Positions 792-60,371 of a stretch of 64,000 bases of DNA are shown in pieces. A program made the position numbers and the translations under genes. The notes below the pieces were generated by a model that did not search any database, was not told where the DNA came from, and worked only from the letters and a program-made list of their open reading frames with translations. How positions within the stretch are numbered: the first letter of the stretch is position 1; every line of letters starts with the position of its first letter. The DNA comes from a virus (Duplodnaviria > Caudoviricetes): the IMG/VR virus record IMGVR_UViG_3300025087_000034; one strand, written 5' to 3'.

Positions 792-2090
792 GTGCCTAAT
801 TTTTCTGACATAACTATAAGGCAATACTCTCCGGGGTCCGTTGGTGGGTACGTGGCAGATAGAGATTTTAATTGGAGTAGCGAGGGAGACTGTAGGGATT
901 CCTTATTGGGGGTTTCCACAGAGATAGGGGTGCAATTTTATTACGCTTATCAACATCCCCGCCCAATGTTTGTTAGTTTGCCCTATTCTGTGTCTGAAGA
1001 CTGGTCTGATAGTCCGTCGAATGCCCCATTTTTATCTGATTTAGAAAGGTACTCGTATGGCAGGTTTGGGCCTAATAGGTATGGGAAGTTAGATAATTAT
1101 CGGGGGGCGAGTGTAAGACAAAATTACTTTGGTATGGCGTCAGAATCGTTAATTACTGAATTAATAACTAGTAAAGATACTGTAATATATGATATTGATA
1201 CGGGTTTAACGAATGAAACCTTAGTTTATGAAACCGAGGTTCCGTTTAATTACACAACCTTAAACCAACGTAACTTATTATTAAATGCTTCCCCAGCACC
1301 GTTTTCTTATAAGAATCCTGTTGATACGGATGTTTATATACGAATGGGTAATTATGTTTATACTCTTAGTTCAGGAACTATCACGCTTTCTTTGGACGGG
1401 GAAAGTAAAACAGGATTAGAAATAACCCCTTATTTTGGTGGGTTAGGCGGTTATGACGTTACTTGGAGTAATGACCAGGAGTTTGGGTATAATTCAAGAG
1501 TAGCGGTTCATTGGACGGTTTATGACTCTTACGTTCCACCAAATAAAATAGATTTCGATTATTGGTTTATGACCGTACAGGACTATTTAGGTCCTAGGTT
1601 TTTTTCTTTTTCTCCGCAGGATGGGGATATTGGTGTAGGTGTTGATACCTGCATTTCCTTTGTTGTTAGAGATTATGAATTAGGTATAAATATAAGTAGT
1701 CTTGAACTATATGTAAATAATGTTTTTATACCTATTAGTAGTATGAGTATAAGTGAAACAAGTTCTGGTGATGGTTATAGTATTTCTTTTTGCCCGCCGG
1801 AAGAATTTTTATATGGTGACACTATACCAGTATCAATATATGTAGAGGATAATTCAGAAGAAAAGAACTACTCTTTTTATGTGTATTCTTTTACTACAGA
1901 GGAAAGCTTGGCTCCTAATGTAATATCGCAGGATCCAAGGCCTTGTATTGGGTATGTTCCTGTTGACTATGATGTTGAGGTTGACGTAGTTGACGGAGGT
2001 GGCGGTATAGACGGTGAATCAATTGTACTAATAATAGATAGCAAGCCTGCTGTATTTAGAAAAGAGCCTATAATATATAGAGAGGATTAG
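792..2090 (+). CDS. Putative virion protein with Ig-like repeats
   Basis: 432 aa with GTG start. The C-terminal half has the pattern PQDGDIGVGVDTCISFVVRDYELGINISSLELYVNN...YSISFCP..EFLYGDTIPVSIYVED, which recurs in 7847..10360. Confidence 0.55.
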   Translation: MPNFSDITIRQYSPGSVGGYVADRDFNWSSEGDCRDSLLGVSTEIGVQFYYAYQHPRPMFVSLPYSVSEDWSDSPSNAPFLSDLERYSYGRFGPNRYGKLDNYRGASVRQNYFGMASESLITELITSKDTVIYDIDTGLTNETLVYETEVPFNYTTLNQRNLLLNASPAPFSYKNPVDTDVYIRMGNYVYTLSSGTITLSLDGESKTGLEITPYFGGLGGYDVTWSNDQEFGYNSRVAVHWTVYDSYVPPNKIDFDYWFMTVQDYLGPRFFSFSPQDGDIGVGVDTCISFVVRDYELGINISSLELYVNNVFIPISSMSISETSSGDGYSISFCPPEEFLYGDTIPVSIYVEDNSEEKNYSFYVYSFTTEESLAPNVISQDPRPCIGYVPVDYDVEVDVVDGGGGIDGESIVLIIDSKPAVFRKEPIIYRED

Positions 2091-2094
2091 TTGA

Positions 2095-5000
2095 ATGCCT
2101 AATACAGTACCTGGAAAACTTACTAAGCAAGGACCCATAGCAACACTAGAGGGTACAGTGGGTTTTACCGATGGTGACAAATTTATGTTTAACGGCAGCC
2201 AGTTTGTGCATTTTGTTTCTCAGGCTCCTACTGCTATAGAGGCTTCTGCTAATAAAGTACAAATACTTTATGATGGTCAGGTATATTCTAAGTTGTCATA
2301 TTCTAATTTTAAAAACAGCTCAAATGTTTTTAGGTTTTTAGATGGTGAGCCTATGTATACAGGAGTTTATATTGGTACTCCTGGTGCTTATGACCATGTT
2401 ATTATAGGGTATTCTTCTCCTATCACAACCAATCAAATTAGGTTTTGGTCTGCGAACTATATACCGAAGGATTTTATACGTGTAGATTATAGCCATGACG
2501 GGGATTATTTTTTTAATGTTCCAACAAGTGTGGGTGATGTTTCCTTTGAATTTGATGACTCTATAAGACTTTATTCTACAGAGGCTTCTCCTAGGGGCCA
2601 GTATGTTTATACTGTAGAGTTGAACGCAGATTACACAGCTAGTTATTGGCGTATTAGGTCTTTTATATTCGCTACCAATACAGCTAGGGTAGCAGACGTA
2701 AATGGTAAGACGGTTACACTGACCACGGTGTCAGGGCTCCCTGCTAGTTCTGATTTATATGAAGACGGTGGTTTATATTATTATGTTGGTAGTATAGGGA
2801 CTTCTTTGCAGACTAAAACTTTCCGGTCTTCTTCTTTACCGCCGATTAGTGGAGATGATAGGTTTATTACTTATAGTGCTACAAATATTACGTTGGATCC
2901 CAATTGTACTACTTTAACATTGAATAATGTTAGACTGGACAATTGTGTGGGAACTATTCGCAGAGGTTCTACCATTAAGGGCACGTGTTCTTTGATGTCT
3001 TTTCCTACTGAATATTACATAGCTGAATTAGCAGAGGATGTGGTTGTTTCTTCTAATCCAGATTATGTGGATCTTGTTTTTGATATCACCTATTCTTCTG
3101 TCCCTGGTTATGTTGTTGGGTGTCCAAATGTTCGCCTTAAATCTATAATAGGTAATTCTGGCAATATAGGATTTACGTTCTCTTACAGTGCTGAGTTGGG
3201 GTTGGTTTTATCTTATAAACCTATGTCTTCTGTCTTGTATGGTTCTTTAGGTGCTTCTTCTTTAGTGGGAATGAACATAGGGAGTTTTGGTGCTTCTGAT
3301 GATCTTGAAGCAGGAAGTTCCTTTGTTTATAGTTATGATTGTGAACTGACCCAGGTTCAGATAGTAAGTGGAGACAATAGCCAGCTTAGGTACTGGGAGT
3401 CTGATGGAAGTAAGTCAGTTACAAATTTATTGGAAGTAGATAATGTTTATGATCTTTCCTACGATGTTTCTGATGAGGTTTATTATGCTATAAGATTTAA
3501 TGCCTTAGGTGGGTTTGGTAGTCCTAGTTTGACCGATGATTTTTCTGGAAATTTTGGTAGCTCTTTTGATGCTTCTAAATGGGGGGAGCTTGGGACCGGT
3601 TTCTATAGGGACCCTGTAGCGGGGTGTGCCGTTTTTAATACTTCTTCTGGGGTTGTTAGTGCGGGGGGTCTTATAAGCACGGCTTATATAACGGGTAATT
3701 TTGATGCTTCTTTATATAACGAAGTAGCGACCTTGTCGGGTTCCGGTTTTTATGGTTTTTCGTTAATAGATAAAGATAGTAATAATATGTATGGCGGTGT
3801 ATTTTTAGCTAGTAATTGGGGGGCAGGGTTCAGTGGGTCTGTTGTCGGTGTGGGTGTTAGTGCGTTAGTAAACGTTGTTAGTTCCTATGTTAATTTTAGT
3901 AGTCTTAGCATTGATCCCTATGTGTTAGTAGAAGGAGACCATAAACATACTTTAGAGTATAGCTCTTCCTTGTGGTATTATACTAGGGAAAGCTTAACTC
4001 CGTCAGGTGTTTTATGGGATGTTTCTGATGTTAATGTTGGCTCTGGTCCAGGTGTGTTGTTGGACGGCATGAGCGTGTCCTTGGAAACGTCAGCTATGCC
4101 TCCGGATGGTAGCCACATTAGTTTTATTACGCATAAGAGCACGGCCTCTGGGTTGAGTAGTTCTACGGTTATGTTGTCTAGTAGCTATGACAGTCTATTG
4201 GGGCAGATTATTTTTAGTTTTGATGATGGGTTCGTAAGCTCTGTTCTGGTTTCAGAGATATACGGGAAGAATTTTAAAATAGGTATTTTTGGAAGTAATA
4301 GCAACTTTACTACTGTTAGTTCTACTCTATTTGAGTCTTCTGGGAGTGTTATATGGACCATACCTTGTTTTGAGGTTGTTGCTATTAATGCTGAGGGTAG
4401 TGTTACAGATGTTCCTGATGTTACTTCTGGGCGAGGTTTAGCAATATCTGCCTTGGATCTTGTGCAAGACCCTGTGGCCTCTTTTGGTGACTATTATAAT
4501 AAGGTGTCCATAGCAACAAACGGCTTAAGAAAAGACTCTGGTGGGGCATTGTTTCTAAGGATTAATTCAGATATTTATAGGTATGAGAAATCAGATCTCC
4601 CAATAATATTACCAGAGGAAGGGTCTACAGCTTCTGTTGTTGTCTCTGGTACTTTGCCATCTATCGAACTACGACATTTTAGTTATGACGACTATGTTAA
4701 TGGTGGTCTTAGTTATGGGTATGAGGATAGTCGTGGTGTTTTTATCACGACTGTTTCTTCCTCGTCTTTATTGGAAACTGGGTATGAGGCGGAGTTAGAT
4801 TTATTGGCCTGCTCTGTTCCTTTAGCTAGGGATCCTGTAGACTATTCTGTCTTATATACACTGGTAGGGAATAGTGTATATGTATTTAATTCAGATGATA
4901 CGTCTGTTGCTTTTTGTAATGTGATATCTAGTGAACCTGTGTTGCCGGCCAATTCAAACTATAGCTCGCTTATTACAGCGCAGGTTACAAACTTGTATGG

Positions 5001-7846: not shown

Positions 7847-10360
7847 ATGCGCTGGAAAGAGGGTGGAATAAACTATGCCTCTGGTAGTTTTAGTATTCCC
7901 GGGAGTAGCGTTCGGGTGTGTGCCTATGATAATGGCACACAGGTGTGTGATAAAGGACACAAAATAACAACACCAGGACAGTGTTATTCTCAAAGCATAG
8001 GAACTATAATAAGTACAGACCCTACGTTTCAGCCTACTTACCCTATATGTTTGGTAGATTATATGGGTCTTATTAATAGTTCGGGTTTTATATTTAATAG
8101 ACAGTATGGTATTTCTAGCACTTTTAATATAAGTACTTTAGATGTTGTTTTGTCTGCCTATAGCTTGGTGTTGTCTTCATTATATACAGAGAAAGAAGAG
8201 TATTTAGTTGTAAAAAGTATATATAAGTTGTTTGATTCTTTAGGTATTAGGGTTTGGTCAGATAGTATAACAGACAGTTATTCAGCCTATTTATCTGATT
8301 ATTATATGGTTGGTACTTTTAAGCTTTTATTGTTGAATAGTGGCTACATTCTCAGAGCTATAAATGCCTTTTCTGAGTTGTACCAGTATGATGTGTATGG
8401 TAGTGTTTCCTTACTTATGCCCTATTATTTTTTCCCTAAGATTACTAGGCAGGTAAATTTAGTAGTAATAGATGATATTACTGGTAGTTTTTCTGAGGTT
8501 GAGTCTTTATTTAAGTTGAGTGTAGAAAATTCTTCCGGCGGGGAAAATGAAAATCCTACAGATATATGTGTAGGAGACTTAACAAAACCATCTCTAGAAA
8601 ACATTCTACCTATACCAGGTTCTGTACTAAGACCAAATACTTCCTCTATATCATTTACTATAATAGATGCTATAGGGGGTGTTGATAGGTCTTCATTATA
8701 CATAACTATAAGTGGAAGTATAACAGCCCAAGCAGGTGGTAGTTCTATTATTGAGGCGGGTGTTATTCAAACTCCCCTGTATGCTTTTTTGGACGGGGAT
8801 GAGAATAGTTATGAATTTACCTATAACCCACCCTTTTTGTGGGCTGATAATGAAACAGTTTCTATAGCAGCTCATGGTTCTGATAAACTGCCTTTAGACG
8901 CAGAAGATGAAGAATTTATATGTGGTGGTCTTTCTACGAATAGCTTTGATGAGGCTTGGTCTTTTAATGTTGCTGGTATAAAGGAACTTACTTGTTCTAT
9001 AGTTGGGTTGGCGGATTCAGAACCTCCGTACATTGATTCTATATATCCTGTTCCTTTTTATGCTTATGCAAGATATGACGATGATATAACTTTTAACATA
9101 AAAGATGACCATGCCGGAGTTGATTTAAGTACTCTTTATGTCTATATAAATAATATTCCTGTTATTAGTGCTGGTGTGATTAATTCTGGTAATGTTTTTT
9201 TGGCCGGCGAAAAAAATTCATATCAATTTACATGGTCTAATACAGTAGGATTTATATATGGTGATAGAGTAGAAGTACATATAGTAGTTTCAGACTTATA
9301 TGCTGTTTTACCAAATATGTTAGACACAACTTATTATTTTGATGTAGTTGATGATTCTTCTCTGCAGTTCTTAAATTTTTTGCCGGCGGTAGGAATAACA
9401 CCTGACCTAGAAAATGTAAATATTGAAATAGATATTATAGATTCTCTTTACAATATTGATCAAAACAACTTATATATAAGTATGAACCAAGAAGTTGTAG
9501 ATAGTACCAAGACAAATATACAAGGTAATAGAAATTTAACTACTACATATTCTGGTTTAACAGCAATATCAGGTACTTGGATACATGATGCAGAAGTACT
9601 AGGCAGTATAATTACAAATACAACAGTTTCTGGTTCTTATATTATAGGAGGTAGTATAGAATATGGAAGTTCCATTTCTGGTTTTATGGGCTCTTTTCCT
9701 GCTCCTTTCGACTTAACTCCTTCCGGTATGATTATTTCCGCTGATTTATATGAAGGAATTGTAGTTTCGGGGACACTGGAAACTGTTCTTGTTAGTGGCA
9801 CTAACTGGGATGGCAAATATGAGAATTCAACTATTACTGATGTTAGTTTATCTGGGTTTTATTGTAGCAGCGTTTCTTCTTATAATACGATAATAAGTGG
9901 TACTATTGGCTACCATTTAGAGTATCACCCAGTAAATGACTTTGCTTATGATAGACCAATAGATATACTTATACATGCAGAAAATTTAAATTCCATTTCA
10001 CCGGTTGTTCGTGAAAGGATTTATAGGTTGTTTTATGGTTATAATGTAAAGACATTTAATACTAAGTTCAATAATAATGATAGAATAGTTGTTTATCTAG
10101 AAGCTTTAAATACATCAAATTTTTCGGCGGCGCTAAAAAATTCATATTACTTCAACACGAAAGAAAAAAGTATTTCTAATATATATGCTTCTATAAATAT
10201 AGTAGAACCATGGTTAAATATAACAGCCGATATACAACCACAAGCACCCGTACACAGGTACGGAGAAACAATAACTGTAGTACTATACGCACAAGACGTA
10301 CAAGGTAATGTATTGGGGCCGTATACCTTTTCATATACGATAGAAGATGCCCCAGAATAA
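7847..10360 (+). CDS. Putative virion protein with three Ig-like repeats
   Basis: 837 aa. Repeated units ISFTIIDAIGGVDRSSLYITI, ITFNIKDDHAGVDLSTLYVYIN and IEIDIIDSLYNIDQNNLYISMN. Confidence 0.55.
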   Translation: MRWKEGGINYASGSFSIPGSSVRVCAYDNGTQVCDKGHKITTPGQCYSQSIGTIISTDPTFQPTYPICLVDYMGLINSSGFIFNRQYGISSTFNISTLDVVLSAYSLVLSSLYTEKEEYLVVKSIYKLFDSLGIRVWSDSITDSYSAYLSDYYMVGTFKLLLLNSGYILRAINAFSELYQYDVYGSVSLLMPYYFFPKITRQVNLVVIDDITGSFSEVESLFKLSVENSSGGENENPTDICVGDLTKPSLENILPIPGSVLRPNTSSISFTIIDAIGGVDRSSLYITISGSITAQAGGSSIIEAGVIQTPLYAFLDGDENSYEFTYNPPFLWADNETVSIAAHGSDKLPLDAEDEEFICGGLSTNSFDEAWSFNVAGIKELTCSIVGLADSEPPYIDSIYPVPFYAYARYDDDITFNIKDDHAGVDLSTLYVYINNIPVISAGVINSGNVFLAGEKNSYQFTWSNTVGFIYGDRVEVHIVVSDLYAVLPNMLDTTYYFDVVDDSSLQFLNFLPAVGITPDLENVNIEIDIIDSLYNIDQNNLYISMNQEVVDSTKTNIQGNRNLTTTYSGLTAISGTWIHDAEVLGSIITNTTVSGSYIIGGSIEYGSSISGFMGSFPAPFDLTPSGMIISADLYEGIVVSGTLETVLVSGTNWDGKYENSTITDVSLSGFYCSSVSSYNTIISGTIGYHLEYHPVNDFAYDRPIDILIHAENLNSISPVVRERIYRLFYGYNVKTFNTKFNNNDRIVVYLEALNTSNFSAALKNSYYFNTKEKSISNIYASINIVEPWLNITADIQPQAPVHRYGETITVVLYAQDVQGNVLGPYTFSYTIEDAPE

Positions 10361-13231: not shown

Positions 13232-13434
13232 TTTATGTTTTTGTATGTGTGATTTAATGCTTAAACCTAAATTATTAACCCAGAGTTGCATTTTAATTTT
13301 CGGTCTTGTTTTTTTCTTTGGGGACTATATAGGACATTACCTCTATTGTAGTATTATTTTAAGGGTTTTTTCTTTCGCCGAAAAATTTTGTGGGCGATAA
13401 AAAATCAAAATTAACTTAGGATAGGAAAAAACAA

Positions 13435-43949: not shown

Positions 43950-43955
43950 TTTTTC

Positions 43956-43984
43956 TTGTCAATTTTTTGTTTTTTTAGTATAAT
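43956..43984 (+). promoter_or_regulatory. sigma70-type promoter driving the replication module
   Basis: TTGTCA (43956-43961), 17-nt spacer, TATAAT (43979-43984). AAGGAG RBS lies before the ATG at 44014. Confidence 0.75.
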
Positions 43985-44013
43985 TAATACGTGATGGTAA
44001 AAAGGAGATTTTA

Positions 44014-45153: not shown

Positions 45154-45155
45154 AA

Positions 45156-46770: not shown

Positions 46771-47111
46771 GTTTAGTAGCAGATAAAGTGCATGAGCTTC
46801 TTATTGGTGCTTTCCCTTTTGCTCGTATTGTTAAAGAATATTCAATTGAATATAAGGGAAAAAGAATGTTTGTAGATTTTTTCTTACCTTCATATTCTAT
46901 AGCCGTGGAGGTACATGGTCAACAGCATGACAAGTTTGTTCAACATTTTCATGTTGACGAGGCGGGGTGGAGAAACCATCGCTATAGAGACAGAGCTAAA
47001 GAAGAGTGGGCCTCTTTAAATAATATAACTTTGGTTATTATACATGAGAATGAGGTACCAAAAACTAAGGAAGGTCTTATAGGACTAATTGAGGAGGTTT
47101 GTTATGGTTGA
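46767..47111 (+). CDS. Small PD-(D/E)XK (DUF559/Vsr-like) endonuclease
   Basis: FVDFFLPSYSIAVEVHGQQH...DRAKEEWA. Confidence 0.7.
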   Translation: MSLVADKVHELLIGAFPFARIVKEYSIEYKGKRMFVDFFLPSYSIAVEVHGQQHDKFVQHFHVDEAGWRNHRYRDRAKEEWASLNNITLVIIHENEVPKTKEGLIGLIEEVCYG

Positions 47112-47577
47112 TGACTTATGGAGTGAGCTTGGTATTTTTTCTGAAAAATTTATGTTTAATAGGGTTACTCCTAATAGCACATTACTAGAGGAGGTTCTTT
47201 CTTTGGATGCTGCTCGATTGGATACTGTAGAGGCTACTACATTAAGAAAATATATTGTTGTATTAGCCCAGTATTTTATTACATTGCAGTTCGAAGAAAA
47301 CTCTGTTGTGGCTGTTGGAAATGCGTGGAGAAATTCCTTGGAGTCTCGCATTTTTAGTGTTCTTAGACAGGATCCTTTGGGTAAAATAAAAACTGTTGCC
47401 GAGAAACGAGGTTTTATTATAGAGACAGACGAGGAGGCTGGACAGTTAGAGCAACAGGGTAGGGTAGCTGACGCAAAGAGGGACCTTATAAAAGGGATGT
47501 CAAAGCCGGTAGAGCAGTATATACAGGTTCTAAAGAAAGAAATAGAGGCTAGGGAAAATGAGAAAACTAGAGGATAG
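47104..47577 (+). CDS. Coiled-coil protein, possibly a UvsY-like recombination mediator
   Basis: ATG at 47104 after GAGGAGG. Helical composition, located between recA and dnaB. Confidence 0.4.
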   Translation: MVDDLWSELGIFSEKFMFNRVTPNSTLLEEVLSLDAARLDTVEATTLRKYIVVLAQYFITLQFEENSVVAVGNAWRNSLESRIFSVLRQDPLGKIKTVAEKRGFIIETDEEAGQLEQQGRVADAKRDLIKGMSKPVEQYIQVLKKEIEARENEKTRG

Positions 47578-48988
47578 TATTTCAGTAAATGTGCCTTCAG
47601 CCGATTGGTATTCAAAGCCAGCGGCTGAGAGAGCTTTGCTATCTTTATGCTTACAAAATTATTCAACTTTTATTGATGTTTCCTCAAAACTTTTTCATGA
47701 GGATTTTCTGGACCCAGGAAACCGTGCTTTATTTATAACTATGTTATCTGTGCATTCTTTGGGTACAGAAGAGTTCGATTTGCCTACTGTTATTTCTTTT
47801 GCTGAGAATATGGGCGTTTTAGAAGATATAGGGGGCTATAAATATATAGACGCTCTTTTTAGGTCAGAGATTAGTCAGTCAAATTTAGAGGTGTATGTAA
47901 AACAAGTTCTAGATGCCTCTTTGTTATTTAAGCTGGAGAGGGTCTTAAGATTGAATGTTGAGTCTGTAAAAACTAGTGTTTCTGAAAATAAGACGGCTTC
48001 TGAGGTTATGTCGTCTGTGGAAAACCAGATTTTGAATCTTTCTTTGGATACATTAAAGGTTGATGATGGACAAGATTTGGTAGCTGGTCTGGAGGAAAGG
48101 TTAAAAGAATTTGAATCAAACCCAGCCGCTGTTAGAGGTATAAGGTGTGGTTTCGAAGTACTGGACCGCACTATAAACGGGTTTAAGCCAGGGACTTTAT
48201 CAATTTTGGCCGCGCGGCCAAAAACAGGAAAAAGTACATTGTTATTAAATTGGGGTATACATATTTGTTTACATGAAAAACTTCCTGTATTATATTTAGA
48301 TACAGAAATGAGTAAAGAAGAACAACAGACAAGAGCTTTATCAATCATATCAGGTGTTCCTGAACGTGTAATACTTAATGGGCTTTACATTAATGACGAG
48401 AATGTTATGAAGTCTGTATACTATGGTGTAGAAATAATGAATAAAATGAAATTTATCCATAAATACACACCAGGGTATAGAATAGAAGAACTTAAGGGCT
48501 TAATACGGAAGTATAAAGCTAAAAATAATATAGGTGTATTTATATATGATTACATCAAAATGACAGATATGGAAGATAAGTTTAACGAAACCCAAACTCT
48601 TGGATATATAACAAGTGGTTTGAAGGACACGGCGGGTATATTGGGTATAGCTGGAATATCTGCGGTGCAATTAAACCGTGGGGCTGAGGGGAAATCATTG
48701 GTTGGTTCCGGGGACATTGCCGATTCGGATAAAATTTTGAGATATTGTTCTACATTGATGGCTATGAGTAGAAAAACAAGGGCAGAAATAGATAAAGAGG
48801 GGGGTAGAAGTGGGACACATCGTTTACAAATTCTTGACAGCAGAGGCAGCAGAAGCTTATATAGTGGTATAGACTTGGAAGTTAATTTTCCCACATTGAC
48901 AATAAAAGAAGCCAGAGCACAGTCTTCAGCTGCATTTTTGGAACAAAAACAACTTGAGGAAGAAGTTACAAAATTAGGAGGAAGATAG
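47558..48988 (+). CDS. dnaB: Replicative DNA helicase, DnaB family
   Basis: N-terminal AERALLS, Walker A LAARPKTGKS, YLDTEM, YDYI, SAVQLNR, IADSD. Confidence 0.95.
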   Translation: MRKLEDSISVNVPSADWYSKPAAERALLSLCLQNYSTFIDVSSKLFHEDFLDPGNRALFITMLSVHSLGTEEFDLPTVISFAENMGVLEDIGGYKYIDALFRSEISQSNLEVYVKQVLDASLLFKLERVLRLNVESVKTSVSENKTASEVMSSVENQILNLSLDTLKVDDGQDLVAGLEERLKEFESNPAAVRGIRCGFEVLDRTINGFKPGTLSILAARPKTGKSTLLLNWGIHICLHEKLPVLYLDTEMSKEEQQTRALSIISGVPERVILNGLYINDENVMKSVYYGVEIMNKMKFIHKYTPGYRIEELKGLIRKYKAKNNIGVFIYDYIKMTDMEDKFNETQTLGYITSGLKDTAGILGIAGISAVQLNRGAEGKSLVGSGDIADSDKILRYCSTLMAMSRKTRAEIDKEGGRSGTHRLQILDSRGSRSLYSGIDLEVNFPTLTIKEARAQSSAAFLEQKQLEEEVTKLGGR

Positions 48989-49399
48989 ATGTCAACATTA
49001 GTTACTGTTCTTATTGCTCTAGGGATTGTTTTAGTGGTTGGTTTTCTTGTTTTTGTGATTTATAAGTGGGGAGCTAAAAATCCCGTTGTAGCCGGTGGTG
49101 TTTTAGGACTATTATCAGCGGTATCCTTCTATTTGAGGGGCATGTTTAAGGACGACCCAGATAAGTTGGATGCTCATGATTTTATGGTGTTATTCGATTT
49201 ACTTTCTAAGGTGGGGTTAGAGGCACTTAAGCTTAAGAAGGAGGGAAAGCCCTTTGTTGAAGCTAAGGAACTTATTACAGAAAAAGTAAAGGAGGTTGTT
49301 GAGACCGTTCCTGCGTTTAGAAACAAAGTACCAGATGAAACAGTAGACAGTATTGCCAAAGTAATTTTTGATGTTCTTGGTTATGTGCCAGGAGTTTAA
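48989..49399 (+). CDS. Predicted two-TM membrane protein
   Basis: Hydrophobic segments LVTVLIALGIVLVVGFLVFVIY and VVAGGVLGLLSAVSFYL. Confidence 0.55.
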   Translation: MSTLVTVLIALGIVLVVGFLVFVIYKWGAKNPVVAGGVLGLLSAVSFYLRGMFKDDPDKLDAHDFMVLFDLLSKVGLEALKLKKEGKPFVEAKELITEKVKEVVETVPAFRNKVPDETVDSIAKVIFDVLGYVPGV

Positions 49400-49411
49400 T
49401 CTCTTATTTTC

Positions 49412-49425
49412 GCGGCGAAAGCCGC
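49412..49425 (+). other. GC hairpin with GAAA tetraloop just upstream of the primase RBS
   Basis: GCGGC-GAAA-GCCGC, preceded by TTTTC and not followed by a U-tract. Confidence 0.55.
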
Positions 49426-49437
49426 ACAAGAGGTAAA

Positions 49438-50466
49438 ATGGATACTTTAACATTAGAAAAGATAAAGGCTAGTGTGGACCCAGATACTTTATTATTGAGT
49501 CTTGGGTTTGTGGCCCATTATTCCAATGAGACGGAAATACGGTGTGCTTGTATTTTGCATGGAGGAGATAATAAAACAGCTTTTTGTTTCAAAAAAGAGT
49601 CGAAGAGATTTTGTTGTTACACACACGGGTGTGAGCTGGATTCTACGGGAAGACTGGACAATGATGTTGTCGCGCTGGTAATGAAGACAAATAAATGCTC
49701 TTTTGTAGAGGCAATAAAGTATCTTAGTATGTTGACGGGTATTTCTATTGATAATTCTTCTCACCAAGATGAGGACATACTTAAACATAAAAAGAAGCTA
49801 GAAAAAGACAGCTTCATACGGTTCATGGAAGATGACACTACCGTGCAGGAAATACCAGAAAGTATTATGGAAAAGTACGAAAAAAATGGTGCAGAATATT
49901 TTTATGGGCTGGGAATATCTGAGGATATTATAAGTAAGTATCGTTTAGGGTCTGGGTATGATAGTAAAGGGGTACATAGAGGAATGATCCCTATATTGGA
50001 CGAACACGGAAGGCTAGTGGGTGTTAGTGGAAGGCGAACAGACAATGAAAAAGCCTCTAAATACTTATTAATGGAGAAATTTCAAAAAAGAAAAATACTT
50101 TATAATTTAAATAATGCATTAGAGTTTACAAATAAATACAAACAATCTATAATAATAGTAGAAGGATTCAAGGTTTGTTGGCATGTTTCTTCATCTGGGT
50201 TTCCAAATGTTGTTGCTATAATGGGTAAGTCAATAAGGCCAGAACAAGTTAACTTGTTAGTTAAATATGGAATATTTAATGTTATATTATTATTGGATGG
50301 GGATGATGAAGGAAAAAAAGGGATGGAGGTCTCAAGAAAACTGTTGGACAGAGGGAAGATAAATGTACTACCAATTTATTTACCTGATAAAAAATCACCG
50401 GATGATTTTTCTTGTGAAGAAATTAGTAGTTTGATCTCAATGTTTTTGGATTCTATAGGAGGCTAG
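49438..50466 (+). CDS. dnaG: DNA primase (CHC2 zinc finger + TOPRIM)
   Basis: CACILHGGDN...FCCYTHGC, IPILDEHGRLVGVSGR, LYNL, IIVEG, LLLDGDDEG. Confidence 0.9.
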   Translation: MDTLTLEKIKASVDPDTLLLSLGFVAHYSNETEIRCACILHGGDNKTAFCFKKESKRFCCYTHGCELDSTGRLDNDVVALVMKTNKCSFVEAIKYLSMLTGISIDNSSHQDEDILKHKKKLEKDSFIRFMEDDTTVQEIPESIMEKYEKNGAEYFYGLGISEDIISKYRLGSGYDSKGVHRGMIPILDEHGRLVGVSGRRTDNEKASKYLLMEKFQKRKILYNLNNALEFTNKYKQSIIIVEGFKVCWHVSSSGFPNVVAIMGKSIRPEQVNLLVKYGIFNVILLLDGDDEGKKGMEVSRKLLDRGKINVLPIYLPDKKSPDDFSCEEISSLISMFLDSIGG

Positions 50467-50468
50467 TT

Positions 50469-50804
50469 ATGGAAGGTTTAAATTACGTTCGTATGAGGGG
50501 TTTTTTGAGGAGACCAAAGGCGGGTTTTACGCCCACCGGGTATTCAAAGTTTAGTGCTTCTTTAGCGGTCCCTGTTACGTATAAGAAAGGCGGAGAAGAG
50601 GTTAGTTCTCTTATATACCATAATGTAAGCGCGTGGGGGGATACGGCCGAGGCTCTGGCGGAGCTGGCGGAGGAAACCCCTCTCGAGATAGAGGGACACA
50701 TTAATAGCCGTTCGTATGATTCTCCTTGTAAATCGTGTGGTGCTGTTGAAAAGAAATACTGGGTTGAGATTCAGGTTGGTAATTTCACTATTGTCTTTGA
50801 CTAG
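50469..50804 (+). CDS. ssb: Single-stranded DNA-binding protein (OB fold) with a CxxC insertion and no acidic tail
   Basis: NYVRMRG...HNVSAWGDTAE...IEGHINSRSY...YWVEI. Confidence 0.8.
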   Translation: MEGLNYVRMRGFLRRPKAGFTPTGYSKFSASLAVPVTYKKGGEEVSSLIYHNVSAWGDTAEALAELAEETPLEIEGHINSRSYDSPCKSCGAVEKKYWVEIQVGNFTIVFD

Positions 50805-50814
50805 GAGACTCGAG

Positions 50815-51150
50815 ATGAATGATATTTTGTTTGGTGTCGCTGGGCCTGTTTTTATGAAGGCAGCAAGGTATAAGAGGGAGCACGTTAGTGGCCCCCACGC
50901 GTTAGAGGTTTGCTTGGATAAGATGTCGAACACAGTAATAGATAAAACTATAGAAAACGATGTTCGTATTGACTTTTCTTTGCTGGTTCGTTTACTTTTT
51001 GATCAAGTTAAGTATCCAGATCTAAAAGAAGGGGAATACTTTGTAATTAGTGGACTATTGTTGGAGGATAATTTCGGGTCAGTAACTATAGTTGGTAATG
51101 TAGTAAAGCTTTTGGAGGAGGGTTTTTATGTTAACAAAACAGACGATTGA
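50815..51150 (+). CDS. Hypothetical protein, possible OB fold
   Basis: ATG at 50815 after AGGAG. C-terminal LKEGEYFVISGLL...VTIVGNVVKLL resembles OB strands. Confidence 0.4.
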   Translation: MNDILFGVAGPVFMKAARYKREHVSGPHALEVCLDKMSNTVIDKTIENDVRIDFSLLVRLLFDQVKYPDLKEGEYFVISGLLLEDNFGSVTIVGNVVKLLEEGFYVNKTDD

Positions 51151-51316
51151 TTTTGATGTTTCAGTAAGTCATCTTACTGCTTTTTATGATTCTGACGTTA
51201 CGTGTCCTTTTTGTGACAGCACCTATATTTCTTTGTTCGATAATGGGGGGACAGTTGAGTACATTTGCCCCGAGTGTGGAAATGTTTGGGTTGTTCTTGG
51301 TGCTGGTGAGGAATAA
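51128..51316 (+). CDS. Small zinc-ribbon protein
   Basis: CPFCDS...YICPECGNVW. Confidence 0.65.
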   Translation: MLTKQTIDFDVSVSHLTAFYDSDVTCPFCDSTYISLFDNGGTVEYICPECGNVWVVLGAGEE

Positions 51317-51322
51317 TAGCTC

Positions 51323-52159
51323 GTGGTTGTTAAATCAGGAATATATTGCATTTGTAATTTAATTAATGGGAAAATATACATTGGGTCAACTATAGATTTT
51401 GAGGCGAGATGGCACGAGCACAAAAGGCAACTAAATAAAGGTAGTCATCACTCTTTACATCTACAGAACGCTTGGAACAAATATGGTGAGGGTAACTTCT
51501 ATTTTGGTGTTTTGGAGGACGTAATAGATAAGTGTGAACTTATTACCGTGGAACAGCGTTGGATAGATGAGCTACATCCTGAATATAATATTTGTCCTAC
51601 AGCGGGTAATACTCGTGGGCGGGAAGTTTTAGAGAAAACTAGGCAGAAGATATCTAAGTCTAATAAGGGAAAGCTTTTAGGGGAGAAAAACCCAATGTAT
51701 GGTAGGACAGGTGAGAAACACCCAATGTACGGTTGCACAGGTGAGAAAAACCCAATGTACGGTCGTACAGGTGAAAGTAGCCCAAATTTTGGTAAACCAC
51801 GTCCAGAAGAAACCAAACGGAGGATATCTAAGTCTAATAAGGGAAAGCTTTTAGGGGAGAATCACCCGCTGTTTGGCCGTACAGGAAAGGATAGCCCTAA
51901 TTATGGTAAACATCGTACAGAAGAATACAAGCGTAAGCGGTCTGAGTCCCTAATGGGTAAGAATAACCCTATGTGGGGACGCACAGGGGTGAAGAGCCCA
52001 TGCTATAAACGGGCTAAATGTTGGTCTTACAATGGAAAATCCCAACCGTTGTCCGACTGGTCCAGAGAATATAATATAGACCAAACAACACTAGCTTCTC
52101 GTGTAAAAAAGTTGGGTTGGTCCCTTGAGAGGGCCCTCCTAACACCGGTGAAAAAATGA
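51323..52159 (+). CDS. Free-standing GIY-YIG homing endonuclease with NUMOD3-type repeats
   Basis: [18 protein letters not shown]...RWHEHKRQL...EQRWID...EYNI. Has [10 protein letters not shown] repeats and a C-terminal HTH-like domain. Confidence 0.9.
51649..51861 (+). repeat. Exact 39-bp direct repeat plus 30-bp tandem units within the GIY-YIG gene
   Basis: GATATCTAAGTCTAATAAGGGAAAGCTTTTAGGGGAGAA at 51649-51687 and 51823-51861. 30-nt units start at 51680, 51710, 51740 and 51770. Confidence 0.9.
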
Positions 52160-52992
52160 CTTTTTATGATGTGTTAGGCGCGTCTAAAGAGGCCTCAGAA
52201 GATGAGATAAAAAAAGCCTATAGAAAGAAAGCTAAGGAAACCCATCCAGATATAAATAAGGATGACCCAGAAGCTGAAGAGAAGTTTAAGAAGGTTTCTG
52301 AGGCTTATGGGGTTTTAGGAGACTCTGAAAAACGACAACAGTATGATTTTTCATTAGAAAACCCTGGTTTTAATGGGGGACCTGGATTTAATTCCTGGAC
52401 TAGTACTAATTTTGATGATATTTTTGGTGCACATTTTGGATTTGGTGCTAGTGGTCCCAGACAAAGACCAAAACCAAATCCTAAGGTAGTAGCTCGTGGG
52501 AAGGATGTAAGAATTAAGTATGACACTACTCTTTACTCAGCAATATTTGGTGGAGAGTTTTCTGGTAGGTTAAAATTTGACTCTGGATGTCCAAATTGTG
52601 CGGGGTATGGCTATCTTAAGTATGATACCCCGTGCAGTACTTGTGGGGGCTCAGGCCAGCAGTTTATATCCCATGGTATGCTTCGTATGAGTCAGCCTTG
52701 CTCTTCTTGTAGAGGCCTTGGGTTGGCTCCTAGTGAACAGTGTCCTGAGTGTTCTGGTTCTGGTAAGTGTAGTAATGAGTTTGAATACTTTGTTACTATT
52801 CCAAGAGGGTTTGTATATTCCAATAATGAAAATGGTGGTGTTATTATAGTAGAAGGTAAGGGGGCACCAGGAATTAACGGCGGGGAAAAAGGAAATTTAA
52901 TAATAATAACAAATATTTTAACCCCAAAAATAAATTTAGAACAGATAACAGAAGAAGAAAAGGAAATACTCAAAAAGTATATAGATAATTAA
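52156..52992 (+). CDS. dnaJ: DnaJ (Hsp40) co-chaperone with shortened C-terminal domain
   Basis: J-domain with HPD, G/F-rich linker and four CxxCxGxG motifs. Confidence 0.93.
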
Positions 52993-52996
52993 AAAA

Positions 52997-53473
52997 ATGT
53001 CAAGAATATTAGGATTAGATGTATCTTCATCCAGTACCGGTTGGGCACTTACAATAAATAATAGATTTTATTTAAAAGAAGAATGTTATTATGGTATAAT
53101 AAGTCCAGAAAAGAATTTAACTCTTGCCGAAAAACTAGAATTTTTTAGGGTTAAATTAATAGAAATTTTAGATAAAACTAAACCAGATATAGTAATAATA
53201 GAAGACGTGTTTTTACAGCGTAATGTTAGTACTCTTAAACTATTATCTAGATTTTCTGGTGTGGCTATAGAAGCAGTAAAATCTAATTCAAAAATAGAAC
53301 CACAACTTCAAACAGTAAAAAAAATACGTTCCAAAGTAGGAACACAAGACAAAAAATCAACATATACATTTGTTGTAGAAAGGTTCAAGCTTCCGTGGAA
53401 AAAAGAAGACTTTAATAAGCGTAATGATATAACTGACGCACTGGCTCTGTGCTTGTTTGTAACTACAAAATAG
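52997..53473 (+). CDS. ruvC: RuvC-type Holliday junction resolvase
   Basis: ILGLDVSSSSTGWA, VIIEDVF, NDITDALAL. Confidence 0.85.
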   Translation: MSRILGLDVSSSSTGWALTINNRFYLKEECYYGIISPEKNLTLAEKLEFFRVKLIEILDKTKPDIVIIEDVFLQRNVSTLKLLSRFSGVAIEAVKSNSKIEPQLQTVKKIRSKVGTQDKKSTYTFVVERFKLPWKKEDFNKRNDITDALALCLFVTTK

Positions 53474-53484
53474 GAGTTTAAAAA

Positions 53485-54663
53485 ATGCAAAATCGATCTG
53501 TGTCTGCTACCGCCATGAAATTGTTTCTCCAATGTTTACAAAAGTTTTATTTTAAGTATTATTCAGATAAAGCTCCCCTAGTCTCTAGGGATTCTATGGC
53601 TTTTGGGTCAGCAGTTCACGAAGCCCTGGAACAGATGTATAAAAGACTAGGAAACCAAGGAAGGCTTCCTAATCAGGATGACTACGATTACGTAATAGAT
53701 GTTTTTATGAAATCGGCAGTTCAAAATCACCTTTCGGACCAATCTCTCTATGATGAAGGTCGGTTGATGTTGAAGAGCCGGTTGGACAAGTTTGATCCTA
53801 GCGAAAAAGTAATTGGTTTGGAGGTAATCTTTGGTAGACCTTATGAGAATCCTGAGGTACCTGTCTCTACCAAAAAAGGTACCCCACTTTTGGGAGCCAT
53901 AGATAAACTTATAGAATTAGATAAAGATACTATAGTAATATTGGATTATAAAACTAGTCGTATGGCATTTACCCAAGAGGAAGCCGATCATGACGAGCAG
54001 CTTTCCCTGTATGATTTGGTGGTTAGTATCCTGTACCCCCAATACAAAAATAGGATACTTGTTCTAGATTATTTACGATTAGAGCCTGTTATTACACATA
54101 GAACCTCGGTACAGAGAGTTTCGTTTGAAAGTCAGTTAGATTGCATCTATGAGGAAATTAAACAGCTATCATTTGAGAAGGTTAAGCCTTCTATTAATGA
54201 GTTCTGTGGGTGGTGTGAGTATAAGAATTATTGTGCTGCTTTCCAGAAGGTAGTATCTGACCCCGACTTATTAATAAAGCCTTATGGTGTGTGCTCTGAT
54301 CAGGAGCTTATAGAAGAATGGGAAAACTTCGGCAAGATAAAACGAATCATAGACTCTCACGATAGGGATTTAAAAATGCATATTTCAAAGACTGCCATGG
54401 ATAGAGATTCTTCCGGTATTTCTGGTGACGAAAAAGAACTGTACAGAGTCCAAAACAGTCGTGTGTCATACAATACGCAGGCTGTAGCTAAAGTTATCCC
54501 GCTAGAAGACTGTTTGCAGTTCTTTTCCGTAAATACTAAGGGTTTAGAGCGGTTTTTAGTGGATCACCCAGAGTATTCAGAGGAAGTCTTAAATAGTGCC
54601 GAAGTTTCTTTTAACAATTCCTTTTTTAAGTTGAGGGGAAAAAGGACTTCTTCGAGAAAGTAA
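53485..54663 (+). CDS. RecB/AddB/Cas4-like PD-(D/E)XK exonuclease with probable Fe-S cluster
   Basis: N-terminal Cys (FLQC), GAIDKL...ILDYKTS, QLSLY and CGWCEYKNYC. Confidence 0.85.
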   Translation: MQNRSVSATAMKLFLQCLQKFYFKYYSDKAPLVSRDSMAFGSAVHEALEQMYKRLGNQGRLPNQDDYDYVIDVFMKSAVQNHLSDQSLYDEGRLMLKSRLDKFDPSEKVIGLEVIFGRPYENPEVPVSTKKGTPLLGAIDKLIELDKDTIVILDYKTSRMAFTQEEADHDEQLSLYDLVVSILYPQYKNRILVLDYLRLEPVITHRTSVQRVSFESQLDCIYEEIKQLSFEKVKPSINEFCGWCEYKNYCAAFQKVVSDPDLLIKPYGVCSDQELIEEWENFGKIKRIIDSHDRDLKMHISKTAMDRDSSGISGDEKELYRVQNSRVSYNTQAVAKVIPLEDCLQFFSVNTKGLERFLVDHPEYSEEVLNSAEVSFNNSFFKLRGKRTSSRK

Positions 54664-54665
54664 AA

Positions 54666-54860
54666 ATGGTTGAAAAGAAAGAAAAAAAATATCAAATATA
54701 TAAAGAAGGTGTGTTTGTCGGACTTCAACTTCTAGATGGGACAAAGGTTTTTGGTATAATTGATACTTTTGACAATTACTTCTTATATATAGACGATGGA
54801 ATAACTATCATTGATGTACCACGGGACATAGTGAGAAGAATTTTTGCGGTTGTAAAGTAA
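54666..54860 (+). CDS. Hfq/Sm-like small protein
   Basis: VGLQLLDGTKVFGIIDTFDNYFLYI matches the Sm1 pattern (cf. Hfq [25 protein letters not shown]). An Sm2-like IDVPRDIVRRI follows. Confidence 0.65.
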   Translation: MVEKKEKKYQIYKEGVFVGLQLLDGTKVFGIIDTFDNYFLYIDDGITIIDVPRDIVRRIFAVVK

Positions 54861-55606: not shown

Positions 55607-55656
55607 TCTTTTGGTTGTTGTTTTTTGTATACAATATTTTCATAAAAAGGAGATTT

Positions 55657-56946: not shown

Positions 56947-56948
56947 TT

Positions 56949-58070
56949 ATGCGAGGTATAAAGGTCATAGGCCCATATAATGATGCTTCTGGTTATGCCC
57001 AGGCATTTAGAGACAACGTTTTGTCTTTATATAAACTAGGTTTTGATATTACTATACAACCTAGGAATTTTGAACCAAACCCCCCACCGGTTTCAAATAA
57101 AGAACACGCAGCTATATTGGATAAACTTGTTGGAAGAAATATTAAGTATGATATAACCTTCCAACAGCTCACCCCAGACTTGTGGCGTGACCATGTGGAG
57201 CCTGACAAGTATAATATAGGTTTTATGGCTTGGGAGACTTCTTTGCTCCCGCCAAAATTTGTTCATTCTTGTTCTTCTGTACAAGAAATTTGGGTTCCCA
57301 GTGATTATAATGTAAGTGTACTAAGGTCTTGTGGGGTTGAAGTTCCAATAACAAAAATACCACATAGTATAGACCCAAATTTGTTTAGTTCAATAGACTG
57401 TGGAGAGTATAGCCTAAAAGGTTTGTCAAATAACACATATAAGTTTTATAGTATTTTTCAATGGATCGAACGAAAAAATCCTATGGGTCTTGTACGTTCA
57501 TATTTTAATGCTTTTGATGACAGCGATGATGTTGTTCTTATATTAAAGACGTATCGTACTGGTATGGGACGTGATAAAGATTTTATTAGAGAAAAGATAG
57601 TGGAAATCAAAAGGGATATGAACATAGGGGCATATCCTAGGGTAGTGCTTATTGGGGACATGCTTAGTAAAAATCAGGTGTTAGGATTACATAAGTATTG
57701 TGATAGTTATGTATGTTTGCACCGGGGTGAGGGGTTCGGCCTTCCTCTGTTCGAGGCCGGGCTAGTCGGTAACCCTGTAATCGGTACTGGTTATGGTGGG
57801 AACACAGAGTTCATGAAAGAAGACAACAGCTATTTAGTAGAGTATCAAATGACGTATGTTTCTGGTATGAGTTCATTTAATCCTTGGTACTTAGGAAGCG
57901 GACAATGGGCAGAACCTAATTTGATTGACGCAAGTGAGAAAATGAATTATGTATTTAATAATAGAATAGAAGCTAGAGAGACAGGAAGGAGACTTCAAGA
58001 TTATATAGCTAGTAATTTTTCTACAGAAGCAGTTTCTAAGTTAATGTTTGATAGGTTATCAAAACTATAA
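56949..58070 (+). CDS. Glycosyltransferase, GT4 (GT-B) family
   Basis: SGYAQA, WVPSDYN, WIERKNP and HRGEGFGLPLFEAGLVGNPVIGT. Confidence 0.9.
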   Translation: MRGIKVIGPYNDASGYAQAFRDNVLSLYKLGFDITIQPRNFEPNPPPVSNKEHAAILDKLVGRNIKYDITFQQLTPDLWRDHVEPDKYNIGFMAWETSLLPPKFVHSCSSVQEIWVPSDYNVSVLRSCGVEVPITKIPHSIDPNLFSSIDCGEYSLKGLSNNTYKFYSIFQWIERKNPMGLVRSYFNAFDDSDDVVLILKTYRTGMGRDKDFIREKIVEIKRDMNIGAYPRVVLIGDMLSKNQVLGLHKYCDSYVCLHRGEGFGLPLFEAGLVGNPVIGTGYGGNTEFMKEDNSYLVEYQMTYVSGMSSFNPWYLGSGQWAEPNLIDASEKMNYVFNNRIEARETGRRLQDYIASNFSTEAVSKLMFDRLSKL

Positions 58071-58086
58071 CTTTTTGGGGGTTTTT

Positions 58087-58920
58087 ATGTTGCTGCGCGA
58101 AAAAATTATCTCATTGATTTACAGGGAAATTCTTGGTAGGGATGTAGACGATATTGGTTTGGGTATATATATGAGGTCTAGCGTTCCTATAGAGGTTGTA
58201 TATAGTGAGGTTTATAATTCCGATGAAGCAATGGAGTATAGGGATAGGATGGAGGAAGAGAGGTTTTTAAAGCAGGCGAATATTAAGTTGCCATTAACCT
58301 TAGCAATGTTTGTTAAGGACGTAGAAGACAGTGTAGAAATGGCTATAAGAAGTGTTTTACCTATAGTTAGTGAGGTTGTTATTACAGATACTGGTTCCTC
58401 TGATAGAACTATAGAGGTGTGTAAGGACCTGGGGGCTCGTGTCTATAGTGTGGGGTTTTCTGACTTTGGTAGCATAAGAACGGTGTCTGGTCATTTAAGT
58501 AGGCAGCCCTGGGTTCTTGGTTTGGACGCCGACGAGGTTGTTCTTTCTGAAGACCTTCCAAAATTTAAGGATTTAATAGAGAATAGTAATGTAGATGCCT
58601 GGGGTTTGCCAAGAAAACGATGGGCCGATTTGGAAATGCTAGTACAGGTAGAGCCGGAGGCATACCCGGATTTTCAATATAGGCTATTTCGTAATGATTT
58701 AAATATTATTTATGTTAGACGAATACACGAAATAATTAAAGGAACTGATAAAAAAGTGGAGGCGCTTGACGGTCCTTGTATACAGCACTTTCAAGATGTT
58801 TTTAAGTTCGGAGAAAAATTAAAATCAAGAAATTTACTTTATAAGAATTTGTATGATAAAGATATTTGTGATGGTGTGGGGCACGAGGGTTTAGCCGTAC
58901 AACCCATTGACGAGGTGTGA
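58087..58920 (+). CDS. Glycosyltransferase, GT2 family (SunS/flagellin-GT-like), with N-terminal DUF4214-like helical domain
   Basis: AMFVKD...VVITDTGSSDRT...DFGSIR...WVLGLDADE. N-terminal LIYREILGRDVDDIGL...VYNSDE. Confidence 0.85.
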   Translation: MLLREKIISLIYREILGRDVDDIGLGIYMRSSVPIEVVYSEVYNSDEAMEYRDRMEEERFLKQANIKLPLTLAMFVKDVEDSVEMAIRSVLPIVSEVVITDTGSSDRTIEVCKDLGARVYSVGFSDFGSIRTVSGHLSRQPWVLGLDADEVVLSEDLPKFKDLIENSNVDAWGLPRKRWADLEMLVQVEPEAYPDFQYRLFRNDLNIIYVRRIHEIIKGTDKKVEALDGPCIQHFQDVFKFGEKLKSRNLLYKNLYDKDICDGVGHEGLAVQPIDEV

Positions 58921-59729
58921 TTTTGTATATTAGTGTTCCAATAATTCTACGTAACATCGTAAGGCTTAATTACCCTGTGGAAATGGTAGTTGGTAGTGTT
59001 GCGGGCTTGGCTAATGAGGTTGTTTTGTGCGTCGACCCTTCCTCGGAGGACTCGACTGTTAAGTTGTGTGAGGAGATGTCTTTAAGGTCGAAGCTCGGTG
59101 GAATAAAGACAGATATACGTGTAGTATATAGTAAATGGGATTTAAAAAACATAACTGATACAGGATATGAATTTGCTAAACAAACAAATATAGCAATAGA
59201 TTACTGTATTGGGGACTGGGTGCTTCTTTTACAGGCCGATGAAGCAATTCACGAACAAGATTTTGATAAGATACTTGACGCAATTGATTATGCAAACGAT
59301 AATAATATAGATGGGTATGAAATGACACGTCTGTATTTTTATGGTAGTATGGATGTCATACGAGACGATTGGACAGTTCCTATTATAAGATTATTTAAGA
59401 AGGGGTCTAGAAAATCGTGTGGGGACGCTATGAATACCTTAGGTAAGGGAAGGGTTGAAAGACTTAATGTTCCAATATATCATTATTCACGTATAGGGGA
59501 TCCTGAAATTATATCTAAACGTATATTATCTTTGGATAAATTTTTTCACCGCGCGGAAAAATTAAAGGACGAAAAAGAACTTAAACCATACTCATTTGAC
59601 ACATATAACTTTGATTGTCAACATAAAGACAATATAGACATAGGAAGAAAAAAAGTAGAACAATCATTTAGTACATTTACAGGCACACACCCAAAAATAT
59701 TCGTTGGGTATACTGGGGAGGGTTTTTAG
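58917..59729 (+). CDS. Glycosyltransferase, GT2 family
   Basis: NEVVLCVD..SEDST...AKQTNIAIDYCIGDWVLLLQADEAIHE...IYHY. Confidence 0.85.
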   Translation: MILYISVPIILRNIVRLNYPVEMVVGSVAGLANEVVLCVDPSSEDSTVKLCEEMSLRSKLGGIKTDIRVVYSKWDLKNITDTGYEFAKQTNIAIDYCIGDWVLLLQADEAIHEQDFDKILDAIDYANDNNIDGYEMTRLYFYGSMDVIRDDWTVPIIRLFKKGSRKSCGDAMNTLGKGRVERLNVPIYHYSRIGDPEIISKRILSLDKFFHRAEKLKDEKELKPYSFDTYNFDCQHKDNIDIGRKKVEQSFSTFTGTHPKIFVGYTGEGF

Positions 59730-59732
59730 TTC

Positions 59733-60371
59733 ATGATATTAGAAATGTCTTCCTGGGCCAAACTAAATATAAAAGAACCTGCCCCTTTATATGAAGTTCC
59801 AGGAATTAATTCTATAGAACCTATTGATGTATATAATTTTCGTTATTCTCGTCCGTATACTGAATTAAGTAAACCAGAACTAGAGGACCCACACAGGCAG
59901 TATTTGGATGTTTTGTGTAATTTGGACAGGGGAAGCTCTCTTTTAATTTTTGGCTCTGGTCACAGTTTTAATATGAACATCTTTTATGATTATGGGAGGT
60001 TTTCTAGGCTTGTAGCTGTAGATTTTTCCGCGGCGGCAAAAATAGGTCTTTACAAAGAAATAGAATTTTACGATAATAATATACTAGAAGGTGACTTACC
60101 TGTTGTTTGTGACTATGTTTTTTCAGCTCATACTATAGAGCATTTTTATAAGAAAGAATTATTTGATATTGTTTTACCTAGATTGTTTAAGGCTGCTAGA
60201 AGGGGTGTAGTGATATTAGTACCGTACGGTACTAATTGGGCCGGGGAACCTTACCATAAGTGTCAGTTTTATGAAAATGATGAATTTGCATCGTTGTTTG
60301 ATAAATACAGGATTGTAAGAAAGGGTTCAGAAATTATATTTTTTAAAGGGGAAACTGACCATGGATTTTAG
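59733..60371 (+). CDS. Class I SAM-dependent methyltransferase-like protein
   Basis: LLIFGSGHS, LVAVDFS, DYVFSAHTIEH, VILVP. Confidence 0.7.
   Translation: MILEMSSWAKLNIKEPAPLYEVPGINSIEPIDVYNFRYSRPYTELSKPELEDPHRQYLDVLCNLDRGSSLLIFGSGHSFNMNIFYDYGRFSRLVAVDFSAAAKIGLYKEIEFYDNNILEGDLPVVCDYVFSAHTIEHFYKKELFDIVLPRLFKAARRGVVILVPYGTNWAGEPYHKCQFYENDEFASLFDKYRIVRKGSEIIFFKGETDHGF

Follow-up and report, generated by a model that had tools for sequence, protein, structure and literature searches.

Written into the coding sequence of a large tailed phage is a recurrent DNA element, a T-tract followed by a CpG-rich core and an A-tract, which is a real, replicated and lineage-dependent DNA-level signal. The element was analyzed in a window of 64,000 nucleotides (the whole stretch of DNA under study; IMG/VR record IMGVR_UViG_3300025087_000034, Caudoviricetes), and its sites are spread over structural, replication and glycosyltransferase genes as well as intergenic DNA (Table 1). 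An earlier note, made from the sequence alone, had listed ten full sites and seven half-sites, all of which were recovered at the coordinates given there, and had proposed that selection acts on the DNA rather than on the protein. Selection at the DNA level is well supported by synonymous shuffles, by the use of all three reading frames, and by replication in held-out DNA and in relatives. The background is indeed AT-rich and CpG-poor (38% GC; observed/expected CpG ratio 0.62), and the codons TCG, GCG, CCG, CGC and CGG are as unusual for this genome as had been suspected, making up 0.04-0.12 of their families. Seven sites were checked in independent assemblies and found to be identical. No description of the motif was found in the literature covered, which leaves out most subscription papers.

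The regular expression of the earlier note matches the window nine times, compared with 1.5 matches in shuffles that keep the proteins and codon usage (0/500) and 2.0 when the shuffles also keep the dinucleotides at codon junctions (0/500). One of the nine matches (49407) is intergenic and was not shuffled, so the null counts include it. The reversed order was matched once versus 0.3 in synonymous shuffles. For coding DNA only, eight full sites were counted versus 0.67 and 12 half-sites versus 1.5 (0/200 synonymous shuffles each), and the A..T, T..T and A..A orders showed no enrichment over background. Moreover, a CpG-containing GC run with a T-tract on its left tends to have an A-tract on its right as well (odds ratio 23, p = 6e-6), and flanking is seen for 23 of 72 GC runs with at least two CpG versus five of 92 without CpG (p = 1e-5). 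Some further DNA (L186/L388 and the tail of L002) connects to the window via an IS605 copy or a gene for a homing endonuclease, and part of it is included in the checks of tract coupling, core words, strand polarity, symmetry, folding, spacing, core length, frame, the strict form of the pattern and assemblies.

The typical layout is (AA)T5-6, a CpG-rich core of 8-10 bp that often contains CGGCG, and then A5-6. The core had been described as GC-rich and 6-12 bp long; the composition stands, whereas the length is 8-10 bp in 17 of 19 sites (null fraction 0.58, p = 0.004). Across these 19 sites the tract centers lie 14.8 bp apart on average. The tracts continue outward as AA-TTTTT in 14 of 34 cases (background 0.11, p = 5e-6), i.e., they are AnTm A-tracts. 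CGCCG/CGGCG is the commonest core word (44 versus 23.5), and the three most enriched 7-mers are CCCGCCG, CCGCCGG and CGCCGGC. The cores are slightly palindromic (dyad score 0.66 versus 0.60, p = 0.04) and fold no better than permuted cores (p = 0.27), with no RNA hairpin beyond chance, which speaks against the cruciform signal suggested earlier. Core starts fall in all three codon positions. Readings based on regular spacing (p = 0.28), hairpins (no folding excess) or frameshifting (all frames used) were thus rejected. The order of the parts is, as had been remarked, the reverse of an intrinsic terminator, in which a GC stem-loop precedes a U-tract, and none of the terminator-like matches listed in 43000-62500 is a motif site. 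The half-site given at 46345 is probably protein-driven, so that item of the half-site list is doubtful.

Table 1. Sites of the element in the window and genes of the replication module.
Feature	Position (nt)	Strand	Context
Full site, T5 / 9-bp core / AAGAA	1787..1805		inside open reading frame (ORF) 792-2090
Weaker site, AAAATTCTT / CCGGCGGGG / A4	8526..8547		inside ORF 7847-10360
Full site, T7 / 8-bp core / A7	9195..9216		inside ORF 7847-10360
Left half-site, (AAA)T6 / GCCGGCGG	9376..9389		inside ORF 7847-10360
Full site, T5 / 10-bp core / A6	10120..10140		inside ORF 7847-10360
Two adjacent full sites, T6 / 9 bp / A5 and T4 / 9 bp / A6	13366..13404		intergenic; missing from the list of the earlier note
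Right half-site	14395..14408		in ORF 14198-19765
Full site, T5 / 10-bp core / A5	20892..20911		inside ORF 19765-24795
Full site, T8 / CCGGCC / A6	26810..26829		inside ORF 24795-29927
Weaker site, (AAAA)TTT / 9-bp core / AAGGAAAAA	30848..30868		inside ORF 29920-32139
Full site, T6 / 10-bp core / AAAGA	33035..33053		inside ORF 32142-33272
Full site, T6 / 9-bp core / A7	45175..45196		codons 7-14 of ORF 45156-45731; encodes IFSGAEK
Doubtful half-site	46347..46356		recA-like gene; REK encoded without the motif in two relatives as well
Full palindromic site, T4 / 12-bp core / A5	48204..48224		over the Walker A codons of dnaB
Short site, T4 / CGCGGCG / A3	49407..49420		intergenic, before dnaG
Right half-site	52878..52890		dnaJ-like gene
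Weak site	57242..57257		glycosyltransferase gene 56949-58070
Right half-site	58095..58105		start of glycosyltransferase gene
Full site, T6 / 10-bp core / A5	59541..59561		in ORF 58917-59729
Full site, T5 / 10-bp core / A5	60023..60042		inside ORF 59733-60371
Replication and recombination module (context only)	44014..54860	+	sliding clamp, RecA/UvsX-like, UvsY-like, DnaB, DnaG, SSB, DnaJ, RuvC, PD-(D/E)XK nuclease
UvsY-like gene	47104-47577	+	replication module
RuvC gene	52997-53473	+	replication module

These results bear on the proposal that the element arises neutrally from mutation (context-dependent survival of CpG or template switching) or from codon-pair bias, that it is a tiny insertion, or that it serves as an RNA signal such as a hairpin, a frameshift or an Hfq site. 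Although CpG is depleted overall, bacteria show an approximately two-fold clustering of A-tracts with GC runs, and a weak Hfq-like match lies at 54666-54860, the enrichment survives shuffles that keep the junction dinucleotides, the coupling is two-sided over 20 bp and present in one polarity only, sites aligned to orthologues show no indels, no hairpin excess is seen, all frames are used and no Rfam family matches the window. This explanation is very improbable and has been largely refuted.

Because the pattern had been chosen after looking at the window, we also tested held-out DNA. This test kept the joined DNA separate, since it may come from a variant or a sister phage. Beyond the window, 28 kb of its contig contained three full sites versus 0.3 (2/1000) and seven half-sites versus 0.9 (0/1000), consistent with the genome-wide distribution proposed at the outset. 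Four more full sites lie in another 20 kb, which is connected via mobile genes and whose ownership is less certain. In relatives with 51-63% DnaB identity (124 kb), seven full sites were observed versus 0.61 in synonymous shuffles (0/200), and relatives with 37-42% or <33% DnaB identity show no clear excess. Across the wider family (39 partly redundant records, ~3.2 Mb), one fixed pattern gave 33 matches at ~23 places compared with two for the backward pattern. The density is uneven, with four sites versus 0.2 in one record (G096). In a complete 298-kb relative (G095, the record of L320), the five sites found all fall within an arc of 67 kb when the genome is treated as circular (248451 through the contig end to 17334).

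Comparison with orthologues shows that sites turn over. The sites align with their orthologues codon to codon and without indels, and therefore arose by substitution. Clear retention at an orthologous position was observed only for site 59541 (L017:20710; 54% protein identity, different core), and the Walker A site of dnaB has a partial counterpart in one relative (L180), a similar pattern occurring in three of 180 distinct orthologous stretches. New sites turn up at other places in relatives; for instance, the peptide IFSGAEK is shared by site 45175 and a site in an unrelated clamp gene of the relative L017. An 18-mer identical to site 59541 (L323) was discarded, since no orthologous alignment exists there. 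The turnover result rests on sites outside the structural genes, which have no orthologues among the loci compared. The motif class is thus kept between relatives and the positions are mostly lost, so that conservation at the DNA level, which the earlier note had suggested testing in related phages, holds for the class and mostly fails for the individual position. Uptake sequences and Chi likewise keep their class and lose their positions. Loss at orthologous positions was therefore the wrong test for refuting the element.

The element was then sought beyond the family. Thirteen reference large phages (3.5 Mb) gave five places and 11 backward-control matches, and an expected presence in cyanophages was not borne out (two places in S-PM2, one in S-SM2 and none in P-SSM2). 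A single pattern yields 188 matches per Mb and no control matches in the window; in 48 bacterial genomes chosen for holding one site, the yield is ~3-140 per Mb, and control counts are similar in most of them. Three copies of the strict form T6-S8-N0-2-A6 are present in 92 kb of the phage contig, compared with 13 places in 181 sampled genomes of Desulfobacterota and Verrucomicrobiota, none of which reaches the density of the phage. In 27 kb of an unrelated freshwater phage with lambda-like tail genes, ~31 sites, full or half, were counted (8 versus 0.8 in shuffles). This phage (IMG/VR 3300020576_003842; L278 1-20000, L279 1-7000), in which full and half sites together exceed one per kb, would be a better system for finding a reader. 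The same layout with CGCGCG cores was found in a giant-virus bin (GVMAG-M-3300014204-43), whose sequences (L010-L012) carry dense T5-(CG)4-A5 elements with fully palindromic cores. A rumen Opitutales genome (G062, 1.7 Mb; L253, L381-L387) has eight strict places versus one control; most of the places seem to lie in intergenic DNA rich in A-tracts. Since these three were found by motif search, they indicate recurrence and not frequency. In Ca. Parabeggiatoa (G052, L242), T5-S6-N0-7-A4 gave 775 matches versus 107 controls; this excess disappears with a stricter, seven-base core and probably reflects a different repeated word.

On balance, and with some reserve, we favor the view that the element is an orientation-free double-stranded DNA (dsDNA) site read largely by shape and used for genome handling, i.e., organization, anchoring, marking or packaging. 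Reading by a protein, readout of shape and the role in genome handling are each inferred. That the site is dsDNA recognized largely by its shape is suggested by a symmetric layout with fixed spacing, a loose core and no preference for frame. Selection would maintain a dsDNA site of ~20-22 bp, with roughly one full site per 5-8 kb of phage genome, that reads the same from either strand, two A-tracts extending outward from one helical turn of CpG-rich DNA. Most likely, a two-fold symmetric putative protein would bind it largely by shape, the putative dimer touching the CG-rich core through the major groove and the narrow minor grooves of both flanking A-tracts. A-tracts have the narrowest minor grooves (PMC8476142), and similar docking and site layouts are seen with RacA, ParB/Noc and KorB (PMC4914108, PMC7383237, PMC11790492). 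Such tags may do a whole-genome job in which number counts and position does not, because any site may go and a new one may arise wherever the protein tolerates F/L-small-small-K/N; the presence of sites in structural, replication and accessory genes and their free turnover would fit this. The signal also illustrates how a phage bends its proteins, down to the Walker A codons in dnaB, to a second code that operates on the DNA.

Several results weigh against this interpretation. For a site recognized by a protein, the core is loose: its sequence is not fixed, and its length may be odd or even. Nor are the sites more evenly spaced than at random. A complete 296-kb relative (G001) has no full sites; as the density varies widely down to this zero, the role is not essential across the family. 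Furthermore, no candidate reader was found in phage relatives among ParB, HU and the type II topoisomerase A subunit. ParB (PF02195) was found in none of the 15 related records, three of them complete, with ~113 kb of at least 258 kb read for this phage, and the type II topoisomerase A subunit and HU were not found in the three complete relatives; these negatives come from complete relatives with few or no sites.

The element might alternatively act through intrinsic DNA mechanics and no dedicated reader, as a local bend, kink or supercoil node that aids host enzymes or condensation. The looseness of the core would suit this, as would the recurrence of the layout in the freshwater phage, the giant-virus bin and the Opitutales genome, which cannot share a specific phage protein. 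However, the tract centers lie ~1.4 turns apart, out of phase for additive A-tract curvature, and near-absence from the 13 large phages and absence from several relatives make a universal benefit implausible. We regard this explanation as unlikely. It is also conceivable, if rather doubtful, that one shape-encoded tag, an A-tract, one CpG-rich turn and a second A-tract written through coding sequences, evolved convergently in several large DNA viruses that are not related and in some bacteria, where a genome-handling protein would use it to recognize and organize its own DNA. In this phage family, the tag would then act as a self-mark spread over the genome, for packaging or anchoring. If true, this would be a kind of signal not described for phages. 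To our knowledge, it is largely open by what means large phages with circularly permuted genomes distinguish their DNA from that of the host and organize hundreds of kb. In any case, a statistically firm, lineage-dependent DNA signal provides a direct bait for pull-down, with the relatives that lack the motif as natural negative controls.

Among known systems, parS, the Noc-binding site (NBS) and the KorB operator (OB) come close in that each has multiple dispersed sites with a T-run, a CG-containing core, an A-run and two-fold symmetry (PMC7383237, PMC11790492). The phage element likewise has several sites dispersed along the replicon. These ParB-family sites are, however, fixed palindromes of 13-16 bp that a ParB-family dimer recognizes, whereas the 8-10 bp core of the phage element is variable and barely palindromic. 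parS has no matches at three mismatches, NBS matches at two mismatches do not lie at motif sites, and for OB only site 49407 is within two mismatches. Together with the lack of ParB in the three complete relatives, this leaves the parS-like logic proposed earlier unsupported. The likeness to OB also bears on the idea that a global transcription regulator uses the sites as long-range operators, like KorB on RK2, or that they imitate a nucleoid or 'self' signal of the host. Three window sites are intergenic despite the scarcity of intergenic DNA, and the Opitutales sites mostly seem intergenic too; yet there is no OB-like fixed consensus, no fixed distance to start codons and no ParB-family gene in complete relatives, and no sampled bacterial genome reaches the strict-pattern density of the phage, all of which renders this idea quite improbable.

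RacA, which anchors and compacts DNA, is a winged-helix protein whose helices lie in the major groove and whose wings lie in the minor groove (PMC4914108). Its ram sites in Bacillus subtilis have a CGCCGGCG-type core, like the phage element, which has CCGCCGG and CGCCGGC among its top 7-mers. Nevertheless, ram is a 14-bp palindrome with TG/CA ends that is clustered near the origin, while the phage element has A-tract ends and its sites are spread; an alignment of half-sites shows T-tracts abutting the core and no TG/CA ends.

The uptake signal sequence (USS), DNA uptake sequence (DUS), Chi and FtsK-orienting polar sequences (KOPS) are signals found throughout genomes; they build up in coding DNA, dictate peptides there and are gained and lost between relatives. 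All have a fixed asymmetric core, and Chi and KOPS are polar. With its enrichment over synonymous shuffles, imposed peptides and positional turnover, the phage element works like the USS/DUS signals. In contrast to Chi and KOPS, it is quasi-symmetric, with no fixed asymmetric word and no clear polarity: CGGCG occurs 27 times on the plus and 18 times on the minus strand, the strand being G-skewed, and the Chi-like logic of the earlier note thus finds little footing. USS has no matches and DUS no exact match. The element therefore works like the dispersed genome signals of bacteria and is a member of none.

Sites of this form might also be hot spots for recombination or Holliday-junction resolution by the phage RecA, UvsY and RuvC. 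The Escherichia coli RuvC cuts at the consensus TTT followed by G or C, and each core boundary shows TTT and then G or C. The window encodes RecA-like and UvsY-like proteins, RuvC and a PD-(D/E)XK nuclease, and biased recombination could drive the turnover of sites. A further parallel is the poxvirus concatemer resolution sequence (T/A-T6-N8-TAAAT), which is used with a resolvase (PMC11152744) and resembles the phage element in its T6, ~8 bp and A-rich tract. That sequence, however, is only telomeric and ends in TAAAT, whereas the phage sites are internal, and no match to it was found. Besides, the RuvC consensus is abundant anyway, polarity is not clear, unlike that of Chi, and the replication module is family-wide, including relatives with few or no sites. 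Hot spots of either kind are accordingly improbable.

The eukaryotic E2F, SCB/MCB (Swi4/6 and MluI cell-cycle boxes) and RSC CGCG-plus-poly(A) elements are promoter elements with a TTT, a CG-rich core and AAA. They are analogues in shape only, since the phage genome has replication genes of bacterial type along with ribosome-binding sites and a sigma-70-like promoter.

The window belongs to the genome of a large tailed phage, and nearly all of its long ORFs are on the plus strand. Long structural genes come first, followed by replication and recombination genes, and then by glycosyltransferases and an IS605 TnpB gene. The DnaB of the window is also found on contigs of up to 258,514 bp, one of them labelled as a groundwater metagenome. 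No close relative exists among named phages, no host was identified from cluster names or TnpB homologues, and the phage's own terminase is absent among the homologues listed. In relatives, a YonG-like gene, a plausible candidate for the small terminase, precedes terL, and motif sites are not near it. Structural proteins of 1676-2057 aa are encoded in 14198-39453; two of them (1855 and 2057 aa) were scanned and had no PHROG match. The tape-measure gene upstream of the window encodes 3587 aa (L374).

For the replication module, no link to the motif was shown, and its small ORFs matched no DNA-binding family. The DnaJ carries a zinc-finger region, and we take it not to be of the CbpA type. The Hfq match at 54666-54860 is to a 64-aa ORF (E = 3e-4, below the cut-off); in close relatives, a similar-sized ORF sits after the PD-(D/E)XK nuclease. 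Three or four glycosyltransferase genes directly follow the module (55615-59729), the first of which is conserved across the phage family, with sugar-modifying genes downstream; they may serve to glycosylate the DNA or the virion. The IS605-type TnpB gene with its flanking inverted repeats lies at 60970-62220 and has variants that are 92% and 89% identical; one assembly joins it to another region, in which genes for RNA ligases, RtcB and ankyrins abound (L186, L388). In the window and its flanks, CTGAAG (17 versus 41) and AACTGG (22 versus 46) are depleted, and close relatives avoid AATT, AGCT and CTAG. These depleted words possibly reflect avoidance of restriction sites and could point to hosts.

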